49,858 nucleotides of DNA from a virus. A program made the position numbers and the translations under genes. Shown here in pieces: positions 39,032 to 39,620 of this stretch (positions within the stretch are counted from its first letter, which is position 1; each line of letters opens with the position of its first letter). Below the pieces are notes generated by a model. The model was not told the origin of the DNA. It was given only the letters and a program-made list of their open reading frames with translations, and searched no databases. Location: the UHGV virus genome UHGV-0134932. The stretch is one strand, 5' to 3'.

Positions 39032-39454
39032 ATGTCATTCTTTTCTACGTTAAAAACAGCTTTGTCTTTGAAGGAGAAACTTGCTGCTACTGGTGTTCTT
39101 GTTCTGATTTGCGCACTTGTTGGTGCTGGGTTTGCATGGGAACGTCATCAGCTAAAGCAAGCCATCGAGAAAATTGGCAGTCTTGATCAGGCTGTTAAGG
39201 AACGTGATAAGTCAATAATGGATCTTAACCAGACCATTGAGACGATGAACAAAGCAGAGCAACATTTTCACAGCCAGGAAGTGAAAAATGAATCAGAACA
39301 AGCCAAATATGCTGACAGGCAAATGGAACGAAAAGCTGAAGTTCAGAAACAACTGGTTGCGGCGGGTAATGTTCGCCAGCGCATTCCTGCTGACACTCAG
39401 CGGTTGCTCCGGGAGTCGATCAGCGAATTTAACGCCGACGCCGACAAAGGTTAA
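39032..39454 (+). CDS. N-terminally membrane-anchored coiled-coil protein (i-spanin-like topology)
   Basis: MSFFSTLKTALSLKEKLAATGVLVLICALVGAGFAW TM segment then a charged helical region; AGGAGG RBS. Confidence 0.45.
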   Translation: MSFFSTLKTALSLKEKLAATGVLVLICALVGAGFAWERHQLKQAIEKIGSLDQAVKERDKSIMDLNQTIETMNKAEQHFHSQEVKNESEQAKYADRQMERKAEVQKQLVAAGNVRQRIPADTQRLLRESISEFNADADKG

Positions 39455-39620
39455 CCACCCTGCCCCCAAAAGTGCATTTATGTGCAGAATGCCAGAGTTT
39501 AGCAGTGAATATTTTGATGATCTGCCAGCGTATATCCTCGATACAGAAACGATGCTGATGGGGATTAACAGGAAGAATCGCAACGTTAATGATTACAACC
39601 GCGCTATCAGCGGTAACTAA
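39288..39620 (+). CDS. Lipoprotein with LSGC lipobox, overlapping the 3' end of the upstream gene in another frame (o-spanin-like/mlp-like); true start probably an internal Met
   Basis: FASAFLLTLSGCSGS signal/lipobox followed by Pro/Thr-rich segment. Confidence 0.45.
   Translation: MNQNKPNMLTGKWNEKLKFRNNWLRRVMFASAFLLTLSGCSGSRSANLTPTPTKVNHPAPKSAFMCRMPEFSSEYFDDLPAYILDTETMLMGINRKNRNVNDYNRAISGN

Follow-up and report, generated by a model that had tools for sequence, protein, structure and literature searches.

The overlapped genes ppfA and mlp beside the plasmid origin of a P1-like phage-plasmid: a predicted two-component spanin related to P2 LysB/LysC

The overlapped genes ppfA and mlp, found next to the plasmid origin of a P1-like phage-plasmid, most probably constitute its predicted two-component spanin, with PpfA as the i-spanin and Mlp as the o-spanin. 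The pair was analyzed in the virus genome UHGV-0134932, a stretch of 49,858 nucleotides (hereafter the window), which belongs to the P1-like phages of Enterobacteriaceae and shows DNA identity of 98.9% to P1 and 99.6% to RCS47. When compared with P1 ppfA/mlp, as the original prediction had proposed, the pair turned out to be that very pair: PpfA matches its P1 counterpart at 100% identity, and Mlp shares 98% identity with the P1 protein, the only differences being two signal-peptide residues, N7 (S in P1) and A32 (V in P1); the identity of Mlp to the RCS47 protein is 100%. The same genes are also present in P7 (upf62.7/upf62.4), SJ46, and JL22. The predicted spanin pair is thus already known, and disruption of the host outer membrane during lysis has long been its predicted role. 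Kongari et al. (2018, Table S1) enter P1 gp064 (ppfA) as the i-spanin and gp063 (mlp) as the o-spanin of an overlapped pair, and Bednarek et al. (2022) credit the identification of the P1 spanin, as a prediction, to Summer et al. (2007). The RefSeq name of Mlp is "Rz-like spanin." As the pair is already catalogued in P1, the reading originally made of this locus is correct but ordinary and brings no new biology.

The gene order in the window, upfC-upfB-ppfA-mlp-upfA-oriR-repA, is the same as in P1 (Table 1). The pair had been described as lying beside the plasmid replicon rather than in a lysis cassette, and this holds: upfA is the sole gene between it and oriR/repA, 424 nt separate the end of mlp from the left edge of oriR, and the flanking genes and sites (upfC, upfB, upfA, oriR, and repA) include no holin or endolysin. 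For P1, the pair was likewise placed in "yet another unlinked operon," apart from the other lysis genes (PMC9025707). While the coordinates of oriR were transferred from P1, the five incC iterons were found directly in the window sequence, at 40182-40282. The first gene of the cluster, upfC, was described as a PAAR / T4 gp5.4-like tail spike tip gene (Gonzales, 2022, PMC9024508). The upfA slot is variable among P1-like elements, being occupied by a Gp49-like gene or empty in other clades, and the terminator-like hairpin after upfA is present in P1 but for one base. Conservation was followed in nine sequences, namely the window and eight other P1-like sequences, down to approximately 55-60% PpfA identity. 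Both the site adjoining oriR and the overlapped architecture are kept throughout the P1-like lineages examined, to the same level of identity.

Table 1. Coordinates of ppfA, mlp, and neighboring features in the window.
Feature	Position	Strand	Description
upfC	37911..38195	+	PAAR / T4 gp5.4-like tail spike tip gene; opens the same-strand cluster; NCBIfam PAAR E 4e-9, P1 annotation
upfB	38147..38992	+	Directly upstream of ppfA; phrog_1559 (function unknown), P1 annotation
Shine-Dalgarno of ppfA	39021..39026	+	AGGAGG, 5 nt ahead of ATG; read from sequence
ppfA	39032..39454	+	ATG ORF, 140 aa; predicted i-spanin, type II inner-membrane protein
PpfA transmembrane segment	39080..39136	+	Residues 17-35, LAATGVLVLICALVGAGFA; Kyte-Doolittle 19-residue mean 2.35
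PpfA heptad-repeat (coiled-coil-like) part	39143..39256	+	Residues 38-75; heptad scan vs shuffles
Shine-Dalgarno of mlp	39276..39281	+	AGGAAG, 6 nt ahead of the annotated ATG, within ppfA
mlp	39288..39620	+	ATG ORF, 110 aa, +1 frame vs ppfA; predicted o-spanin precursor, outer-membrane lipoprotein
Doubly coding overlap	39288..39454	+	167 nt; PpfA residues 86-140 / Mlp residues 1-55
mlp codon 24	39357..39359	+	TTG; possible alternative start, with which the signal peptide would be a canonical lipoprotein one of 16 residues
Lipobox of Mlp	39396..39407	+	L-S-G-C, residues 37-40; regular-expression match; Cys40 predicted as lipidated first mature residue
upfA	39632..40024	+	Between mlp and oriR; phrog_1453 (function unknown)
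Terminator-like hairpin	40038..40058	+	GC-rich hairpin and T run; end of the upfC-upfA cluster, just before oriR; consensus scan only
oriR	40044..40285	+	DnaA boxes, GATC cluster, incC iterons; transferred from P1 annotation, 98% identity
repA	40342-41202		

The Shine-Dalgarno site of ppfA read from the window is also the one given for P1 gp064 (Kongari et al., 2018, Table S1). The product had been described as a membrane-anchored helical protein, and the data agree with this. It contains one hydrophobic segment, and Kyte-Doolittle analysis of the whole protein revealed no second one; all PpfA homologues have a hydrophobic segment at the same position, although its sequence is variable. In the AlphaFold2 model (mean pLDDT 69), PpfA approximates a single long helix: residues 13-110 form a helix that includes the transmembrane segment and are followed by a loop (111-119) and a second helix (120-138). 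The coiled coil, which was also part of the original description, is confirmed for the membrane-proximal part only, because the heptads are confined to residues 38-75. Here, 80% of a/d positions are occupied by L/I/V/M/F, compared to 26% overall, a value equaled by 0 of 2000 shuffles, and the heptad register recurs in the 60%-identity clade. In the same test, residues 76-110, a charged helix, give no heptad signal. PpfA has no periplasmic cysteine; its single Cys is a transmembrane residue, and PpfA of the diverged clade is entirely devoid of Cys. The Cys counts reported for the P1 pair agree with those found here (Kongari et al., 2018, Table S1).

The 3′ end of ppfA is overlapped out of frame by mlp, as predicted: the latter occupies the +1 frame over the last 167 nt of ppfA and runs 166 nt past its end. 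PpfA-Mlp fusion ORFs of 195 aa also occur, and these may be either sequencing errors at the A5 run or genuine variants. The further expectation that mlp encodes a Pro/Thr-rich lipoprotein with an LSGC lipobox is supported by the match to the lipobox pattern, by Ser as residue +2 after the lipobox Cys, and by the composition of the mature protein, which would be 71 aa long and begin with CSGSRSANLTPTPTKVNHPAPKS, with P/T/S making up 44% of its first 25 residues. The lipobox Cys is present in 9/9 sequences, in motif variants that include LSAC, LVAC, LNGC, and LNAC; Asn at position -2, found in some diverged relatives, is atypical. One further cysteine, the periplasmic Cys66, is conserved as well. 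The structure model of Mlp has a pLDDT of 57. For P1 Mlp, Table S1 of Kongari et al. (2018) gives LipoP cleavage at residue 39 and adds the remarks "no hit by Prosite" and "too long signal sequence."

The second of these remarks touches on a debatable issue, the start codon of mlp. The annotated start gives a signal peptide of 39 residues, which is unusually long. Met1 of P2 LysC aligns with Mlp residue 24, so that, counted from the annotated start, Mlp has an N-terminal extension of 23 residues. Codon 24 reads TTG in the P1 clade (three sequences) and ATG in five diverged sequences, but AGG in Cronobacter phage JK004, and no Shine-Dalgarno sequence was found at the usual distance from it. It was not accepted as the sole start, as it is AGG in JK004 and is not preceded by a Shine-Dalgarno sequence. 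Met28 was also considered and rejected, since this residue is Val or Leu in other lineages. The upstream ATG, in turn, is accompanied by a purine-rich Shine-Dalgarno equivalent (AGGAGG or AAGAGG) in 9/9 compared sequences. The start codon is therefore ambiguous, and two starts may be in use, the upstream ATG with its Shine-Dalgarno sequence and codon 24, which is TTG or ATG in 8/9 sequences.

It could be argued that mlp is not a genuine gene but a +1-frame ORF that happens to stay open through ppfA and the spacer that follows. Most gene callers skip mlp or call its non-overlapping tail only (products of 46-65 aa), and the first 23 codons are poorly conserved, with 23-31% amino-acid identity. 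However, the 8/8 other P1-like sequences, and thus all nine, retain the +1 ORF, the Shine-Dalgarno sequence, a motif resembling a lipobox together with its Cys, and Cys66. In the mlp-only part, protein identity is 76-83%, and substitutions fall mostly at mlp third codon positions (e.g., 8, 7, and 26 at the three positions). The nucleotide identity between clades reaches 86-88% in the 3′ half of the overlap, compared to 60% in the ppfA-only part and 72-79% in the mlp-only part; hence the doubly coding stretch far exceeds both of its singly coding flanks in conservation. Mlp is, moreover, homologous to P2 LysC (see below). With this pattern of conservation, a chance ORF is extremely improbable, and this reading can be regarded as effectively refuted already. 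The overlapped pair is kept under dual-frame constraint.

In BLASTP, Mlp matches P2 LysC with E 5e-8 (37% over 68 residues), and the alignment takes in the second Cys as well as the signal peptide and the stretch rich in Pro/Thr. For PpfA and P2 LysB, the same comparison is not significant (BLASTP E 58), and hhalign with the PpfA alignment gave a probability of 1.7%. Profile searches nevertheless lead from each partner to the P2 pair. The best NCBIfam match of PpfA is TIGR03495, phage_LysB (E 2e-3; 18.2 bits, under the curated cutoff of 92.75), and the single NCBIfam match of Mlp is NF038368, P2_Rz1 (E 0.033; 14.3 bits, under the cutoff of 27). Among the orthologues, TIGR03495 (LysB) is matched by 6/6 PpfA proteins and is the top match for four of them, and NF038368 (LysC) is the top match for 5/6 Mlp proteins; the maxima, 24.7 and 18.9 bits, respectively, are also below the curated cutoffs. 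The two families represent the two halves of the P2 spanin, and each partner points there independently. Judged from these sequence comparisons, PpfA and Mlp are remote relatives of P2 LysB and LysC and not equivalogs. Much stronger matches were obtained with PHROGs, in which PpfA residues 21-139 match phrog_89 (E 5e-25) and Mlp residues 1-110 match phrog_30284 (E 2e-77), both named "Rz-like spanin"; these matches are partly circular, since P1 was probably among the phage genomes used to build PHROGs. Further spanin PHROGs, phrog_739, 214, and 456, were matched at about 1e-5 (Mlp to phrog_456 with E 4e-5), and these matches are independent but weak. In the Pfam scan, which included Rz and Rz1, PpfA had no match at gathering score and Mlp none at E up to 1. 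A sequence search of the Protein Data Bank gave only chance-level matches for both proteins (E 0.3-0.5).

The arrangement was originally assigned to the Rz/Rz1 type. The spanin-like reading matches the published assignment, but the class is a different one: ppfA/mlp belongs to the overlapped class, exemplified by P2 lysB/lysC, and not to the embedded class of lambda Rz/Rz1. The two phages are taken as representatives of these classes by Kongari et al. (2018). In P2, the type example of an overlapped two-component spanin, lysB (7922-8347) encodes a type II membrane protein of ~140 aa, and lysC (8202-8492), a +1-frame lipoprotein gene of ~100 aa, passes the lysB stop, as in the P1 type. The P2 pair differs in its location, since it lies in the lysis cassette right after holin Y, endolysin K, and lysA, whereas the P1-type pair lies beside the plasmid origin. 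With lambda, the predicted topology and the allocation of tasks are shared: a helical subunit in the inner membrane is paired with a small lipoprotein of the outer membrane, which is rich in Pro and encoded in the +1 frame. However, lambda Rz1 (46186-46368) is fully within Rz (45966-46427), while mlp extends beyond ppfA. Lambda Rz has two periplasmic cysteines and PpfA none, and mature lambda Rz1 consists of 40 aa, compared to 71 aa for mature Mlp. The hhalign probability for the PpfA alignment against lambda Rz was 1.9%, and the match of Mlp to lambda Rz1 (E 0.007) is limited to the signal peptide and the Pro-rich stretch and is not significant.

The features by which spanins are recognized were taken from Kongari et al. 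(2018) and, as cited in later papers, Summer et al. (2007). PpfA/Mlp shows a single N-terminal transmembrane segment, a helical, predicted periplasmic domain with a linker, a lipobox followed by Ser at +2, and adjacent overlapped genes in a phage of Gram-negative hosts; location in a holin/endolysin cassette, which is usual but not obligatory, is not found. Of periplasmic cysteines that could serve for disulfide-linked homodimers, Mlp has one (Cys66) and PpfA none. The topology, lipidation, complex formation, expression time, and lysis role of the two proteins are inferred. By analogy to lambda Rz/Rz1, PpfA would be held in the inner membrane by its N-terminal helix, with a helical domain of ~100 residues reaching into the periplasm. 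Mlp would be exported, lipidated at Cys40, and freed of its signal peptide, and the Ser at +2 would direct it to the outer membrane, into the inner leaflet. It would probably dimerize via its single conserved periplasmic cysteine, Cys66. The periplasmic parts of PpfA and Mlp are proposed to bind each other, forming a bridge threaded through the peptidoglycan mesh; PpfA 113-140 and Mlp 56-105 are the best-conserved candidate segments for this contact. Once the P1 holin/endolysin system (LydA/Lyz, encoded outside the window) destroys the peptidoglycan, the PpfA-Mlp complexes would be released and would complete lysis by fusing or disrupting the outer membrane. The cluster opens with upfC, a predicted virion gene, which fits expression during lytic growth.

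In CRISPRi knockdown experiments scored by P1 plaques, the efficiency of plating (EOP) was 1.3 and 1.2 for ppfA and 0.24 and 0.19 for mlp, and both genes were scored non-essential; lambda Rz was scored essential in the same study. Spanin defects are, however, masked under many laboratory conditions (PMC9025707), so non-essentiality on plates is no argument against a spanin. A related view is that the pair controls the timing of lysis and does not itself disrupt the outer membrane. Both P2 lysB/lysC ("nonessential; affects timing of lysis") and P1 mlp ("possibly involved in regulation of lysis (by homology)") were originally annotated in this sense, and the effect of mlp knockdown is mild (EOP about 0.2). 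However, the effect of P2 lysB/lysC on timing is now understood as a spanin phenotype, RefSeq now uses "Rz-like spanin" for both genes, and P2 serves as the type of the overlapped class (Kongari et al., 2018). Moreover, a complex that is to span the periplasm needs just such a combination of a membrane-anchored helical protein with a lipoprotein in the outer membrane, and the sequences of PpfA and Mlp contain no hint of holin interaction. A role restricted to timing is thus considered very unlikely, and disruption of the outer membrane by a spanin is the preferred reading.

The second question concerns expression and the position of the genes. No Lpa-dependent late promoter is annotated upstream of ppfA/mlp in P1; the annotation of the region immediately upstream contains only P1ppfA and P2ppfA, which are predicted sigma-70 promoters. 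Together with the proximity of plasmid maintenance functions (oriR, repA, and parAB) instead of lysis genes, and with the dispensability of both genes for plaques, this might suggest an envelope pair expressed from the plasmid prophage with a non-lysis role, such as surface exclusion, envelope modification, or lysogenic conversion, the spanin shape being a remnant or a coincidence. Such a role is unlikely. Against it stand the homology between Mlp and LysC, the o-spanin of P2, the independent matches of the two partners to the LysB and LysC families and to several spanin families among the PHROGs, and the predicted spike-tip gene at the head of the cluster. In addition, the sigma-70 promoters are weak predictions, and a sigma-70 consensus scan did not recover either of them, while the plaque data are uninformative against a spanin for the reason given above. 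A search for late promoters was made with a pattern derived from a single annotated P1 promoter, LP23 (AAGTGACTT-N4-TAAAAT). The exact match in the window is LP23 itself, at 44130. A site with two mismatches at 37860-37878, 33 nt ahead of upfC, was not accepted as a late promoter, since 20 such matches occur window-wide where 12.5 are expected, which is not significant. The TAnnAT hexamer of this site is present in 9/9 sequences, an observation that can be treated as a lead only.

If the predicted spanin is retained as the preferred reading, it can still be asked whether its function is simply a late lysis function. The oriR-side location in all lineages examined, the lack of an annotated late promoter, and the lack of a plaque phenotype form the basis of the view that it is not, to which we assign a low probability. 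The pair could then be made in the lysogen too, either pre-loaded in the envelope and harmless until the peptidoglycan is destroyed, or with an extra role for the plasmid prophage.

For the family as a whole, ppfA and mlp both belong to the set of 21 genes that are best conserved in P1-like phage-plasmids (PMC9603915), and the pair is carried by 656 PLSDB plasmids. Recognition of the predicted spanin has practical value for the annotation of these elements: among the matches listed, "hypothetical protein" is the label of the genes of the pair in PLSDB plasmids, mlp is often missed or shortened by gene callers, and PpfA is mislabelled as an "endopeptidase" or "outer membrane" protein in several GenBank records.

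The pair ppfA and mlp is already known: it is catalogued as the overlapped two-component spanin of phage P1, with gp064 as the overlapped i-spanin and gp063 as the overlapped o-spanin (Kongari et al., 2018, PMC6139136, Table S1); the two labels are swapped in the text of Bednarek 2022. The window is a phage-plasmid of the P1 type. Over the 801 bases surrounding the pair, identity is 99.6% to phage RCS47 and 98.9% to P1 and P7, and the window's second half runs collinear with P1 from 53.4 to 78.0 kb. Comparison with P1 ppfA and mlp, which the original prediction had named as a check, showed that this is the same pair: PpfA is 100% identical to its P1 counterpart, and Mlp differs in two residues, both in the signal peptide. 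Both genes are among the 21 most conserved of P1-like phage-plasmids (PMC9603915). Naming is inconsistent. RefSeq labels mlp, alone of the pair, "Rz-like spanin"; the name Rz/Rz1 is given to the pair in several GenBank records, and PpfA appears as "endopeptidase Rz" or "outer membrane lytic protein" in a number of those for phages. The pair is carried by 656 PLSDB plasmids, labelled "hypothetical protein" among the examples listed.

Features of the window around ppfA/mlp and elsewhere; the gene order is the P1 annotation transferred to the window
Feature	Position	Strand	Remarks
loxP	2690-2727		ATAACTTCGTATA...TATACGAAGTTAT
tRNA gene	31956-32031	-	anticodon CAT
tRNA gene	33472-33547	-	anticodon TGT
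tRNA gene	33550-33625	-	anticodon GTT
uhr/dmt		divergent	upstream end of transferred order
C1 operator Op68			between uhr/dmt and upfC
TAnnAT hexamer	37873-37878		33 nt before upfC
upfC	37911-38195		PAAR / T4 gp5.4-like spike-tip gene, first of cluster
upfB	38147-38992		between upfC and ppfA
ppfA	39032-39454	+	140 aa; ATG; AGGAGG 5 bases upstream
A5 run	39281-39290		GTGAAAAATG, at mlp start
mlp	39288-39620	+	110 aa; ATG; AGGAAG 6 bases upstream
mlp codon 24	39357-39359		
upfA	39632-40024		between mlp and oriR
Terminator-like hairpin	40038-40058		AACCGGCTATGTTGGCCGGTT then TTTTCACTT; consensus scan only
oriR			after upfA, before repA
incC iterons	40182-40282		five, 21-bp spacing; found directly
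repA	40342-41202		after oriR; followed by incA, parAB
incA iterons			after repA; found directly

As originally predicted, the two plus-strand ORFs overlap out of frame: mlp lies in the +1 frame relative to ppfA, shares its last 167 nt and extends 166 nt past its stop codon. The expectation of a membrane-anchored helical protein also agrees with PpfA, which has one strongly hydrophobic segment (residues 17-35, Kyte-Doolittle mean 2.35), is otherwise rich in Q, A, E and K, and is modelled by AlphaFold2, from an 18-sequence alignment, as a long helix (13-110), a loop (111-119) and a short helix (120-138) at a mean pLDDT of 69. The coiled coil that had been claimed finds support in the membrane-proximal half of the helix only. 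In residues 38-75, L, I, V, M or F occupy 80% of heptad a/d positions versus 26% overall (matched by 0 of 2000 shuffles), a register shared by relatives that are 60% identical; the helix is charged over residues 76-110, where the heptad signal is absent. Mlp is the foreseen Pro/Thr-rich lipoprotein, with an L-S-G-C lipobox, Cys40, Ser at +2 and a mature form of 71 residues that starts Pro/Thr/Ser-rich and has Cys66 as its second cysteine. AlphaFold2 modelled Mlp with low confidence (pLDDT 57), predicting coil for the N-terminal part of the mature form. Of the P1 proteins, the o-spanin was reported to have a single periplasmic Cys and the i-spanin no Cys other than one in the transmembrane domain (PMC6139136, Table S1). 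The figures of that table agree with our own counts on the window proteins. One PpfA relative on an E. coli contig (P0012, L008 59-481) has its first 23 residues swapped for unrelated sequence near the contig end, probably a rearrangement or insertion junction that removed the start of the transmembrane segment.

No family in Pfam reached threshold for PpfA or Mlp, and no solved structure was found related to either by sequence. In PHROGs, PpfA matched phrog_89 (E 5e-25) and Mlp phrog_30284 (E 2e-77), both "Rz-like spanin", with weaker matches to other spanin PHROGs; the two strong matches carry some circularity, since P1 itself probably went into the making of these families. NCBIfam was the more telling source: there, the best match of PpfA is TIGR03495 (P2 LysB) and the sole match of Mlp is NF038368 (P2 LysC), so that the partners match one each of the two halves of one known spanin. 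The LysB model is among the matches of all six PpfA orthologues (best for four) and the LysC model is the best match for five of six Mlp orthologues, all these scores, including those of PpfA and Mlp, lying well below the curated cutoffs. BLASTP aligned 68 residues of Mlp with P2 LysC at 37% identity (E 5e-8); the aligned stretch starts at Mlp residue 24, opposite LysC residue 1, and takes in signal peptide, Pro/Thr stretch and second Cys. PpfA showed no significant similarity to P2 LysB or lambda Rz. The +1 overlapped layout is that of P2 lysB/lysC, whereas in lambda Rz1 is embedded within Rz and does not outrun it as mlp does ppfA. Judged from sequence, ppfA/mlp thus appears to be a remote relative of P2 LysB/LysC, and the spanin-like reading is supported as a predicted function by the Mlp-LysC homology and the concordant family matches. 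Membership of the lambda Rz/Rz1 sequence family was rejected, with no Pfam family at threshold and a non-significant PpfA-Rz comparison.

BLAST-level homologues are confined to P1-like elements of Escherichia, Salmonella, Klebsiella, Cronobacter and Shigella. Eight further loci were compared with the window: P1, a 93%-identity variant, four of a clade at about 60% identity, a metagenomic locus at about 55% and Cronobacter phage JK004. In all nine sequences PpfA has 140 aa and an N-terminal hydrophobic segment, and a +1-frame ORF of 109-111 aa starts within one codon of the same place behind a purine-rich Shine-Dalgarno sequence. All nine also keep a motif resembling a lipobox, with Cys as its last residue (LSGC, LSAC, LVAC, LNGC or LNAC), and the AFMCRMPE motif containing the second Cys.

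Identity of the window to four loci of the 60%-identity clade (589-nt region, ungapped alignment)
Part	Nucleotide	PpfA	Mlp
ppfA only	60%	48-54%	
Overlap, first half (Mlp 1-27)	65-72%	67-70%	23-31%
Overlap, second half (Mlp 28-55; PpfA C-terminal 28 residues)	86-88%	79-86%	70-74%
mlp only	72-79%		76-83%

Mlp residues 28-55 comprise the signal-peptide core, lipobox and mature N-terminus. Substitutions in the mlp-only part are concentrated at mlp third codon positions (e.g., 8, 7, 26 by position), and those in Mlp codons 2-23 follow the ppfA frame. The region-wise identities and this codon-position pattern point to purifying selection on both genes, and the conservation of mlp rules out that it is a chance ORF.

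The annotated ATG of mlp, with its Shine-Dalgarno sequence, is present in 9/9 sequences and gives an unusually long signal peptide of 39 residues; for P1 gp063, LipoP cleavage at residue 39, "Too long signal sequence" and no Prosite hit were recorded (PMC6139136, Table S1). Codon 24 is start-capable in eight of the nine (TTG in the P1 clade, ATG in five diverged sequences; AGG in JK004), is aligned with Met1 of P2 LysC and would yield a canonical 16-residue signal peptide; a Shine-Dalgarno sequence is absent there. The same mature lipoprotein results from either start. Met28 was discarded as a start, as the residue is not conserved. Public assemblies also contain PpfA-Mlp fusion ORFs of 193-195 aa (P0003, P0011, P0017, P0019, P0023, P0039, P0041, P0042), arising by single-base frame switches at differing points, at the A5 run by the mlp start (39281-39290) and elsewhere in the overlap (39288-39454): after PpfA residue 85 in three clusters (31, 22 and 6 member sequences), and elsewhere after residues 97, 104, 110, 127 and 138. 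Sequencing errors in homopolymers may explain these ORFs, as may genuine variation.

The pair lies, as had been noticed, beside the replicon and outside a lysis cassette, with upfA, oriR and repA downstream and the mlp-to-repA region 98% identical to P1. Neither the window ORFs nor the P1 annotation place a holin or endolysin gene next to it, whereas P2 lysB/lysC directly follow such genes; the other P1 lysis genes, lyz, lydA and lydB, are in unlinked operons (PMC9025707). Position beside the replicon, the absence of an annotated late promoter at the upfC cluster in P1 and dispensability on plates would fit a role of the pair in the envelope, outside lysis, for the plasmid prophage. In genome-wide CRISPRi of P1 plaques, EOP was 0.24 and 0.19 for mlp and 1.3 and 1.2 for ppfA, both scored non-essential, and lambda Rz was scored essential in the same study (PMC10695390). 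The homology of Mlp to LysC and the concordant spanin-family matches of both proteins disfavour a role outside lysis relative to a spanin. The P1 record lists no upfC promoter. Op68 (ATTTATTAGAGCAAT core) in the uhr-upfC intergenic region (37813-37878) and the TAnnAT hexamer are kept in all nine sequences, and the 9-mer four bases upstream of the hexamer resembles the -22 box of late promoter LP23 (AAATAACCT vs AAGTGACTT); the pattern match is not significant window-wide and is a lead only. Lytic-phase transcription of the cluster is suggested because its first gene, upfC, is a spike-tip gene. The hairpin directly after upfA, at the left edge of oriR, ends the same-strand cluster and could shield the origin from upfC-upfA read-through.

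The mlp-oriR slot varies: it is occupied by upfA in the P1 clade and by a Gp49-like gene unrelated to it (PF13876; about 6597-6966 in loci L003, L006 and L007) in the 60%-identity clade, and is empty in loci L004 and L014. In phage JL22, blaCTX-M-55 is inserted in upfA (PMC9603915). Elsewhere, the minus-strand tRNA trio is that expected for the P1 tRNA cluster. Across bases 126-25000, vB_EcoM-673R5 is the phage record with the best coverage, and its annotation under the match includes type I restriction genes (HsdR2 and specificity subunit S); P1 is not among the phage records listed for this stretch. An E. coli P1-like contig (L009, 244-3531) encodes a Dmt methyltransferase product of 1095 aa whose methylase domains are separated by Hint_2 and LAGLIDADG matches, suggestive of an intein-type insertion.

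In the mechanism proposed by analogy with known spanins, PpfA would be anchored in the inner membrane with a helical domain of about 100 residues extending into the periplasm, and Mlp would be lipidated at Cys40 and, since residue +2 is Ser, sorted to the outer membrane. The two would meet and bind in the periplasm, with PpfA 113-140 and Mlp 56-105 as the best-conserved candidates for the binding segments, and after degradation of peptidoglycan by Lyz the complex would disrupt or fuse the outer membrane. Regulation of lysis timing is how the same P2 phenotype was formerly interpreted. The context PAAR gene-upfB-ppfA-mlp-(variable slot)-repA-parAB is common to all nine sequences, so the position of this predicted spanin beside the replicon is ancestral to the P1-like group.
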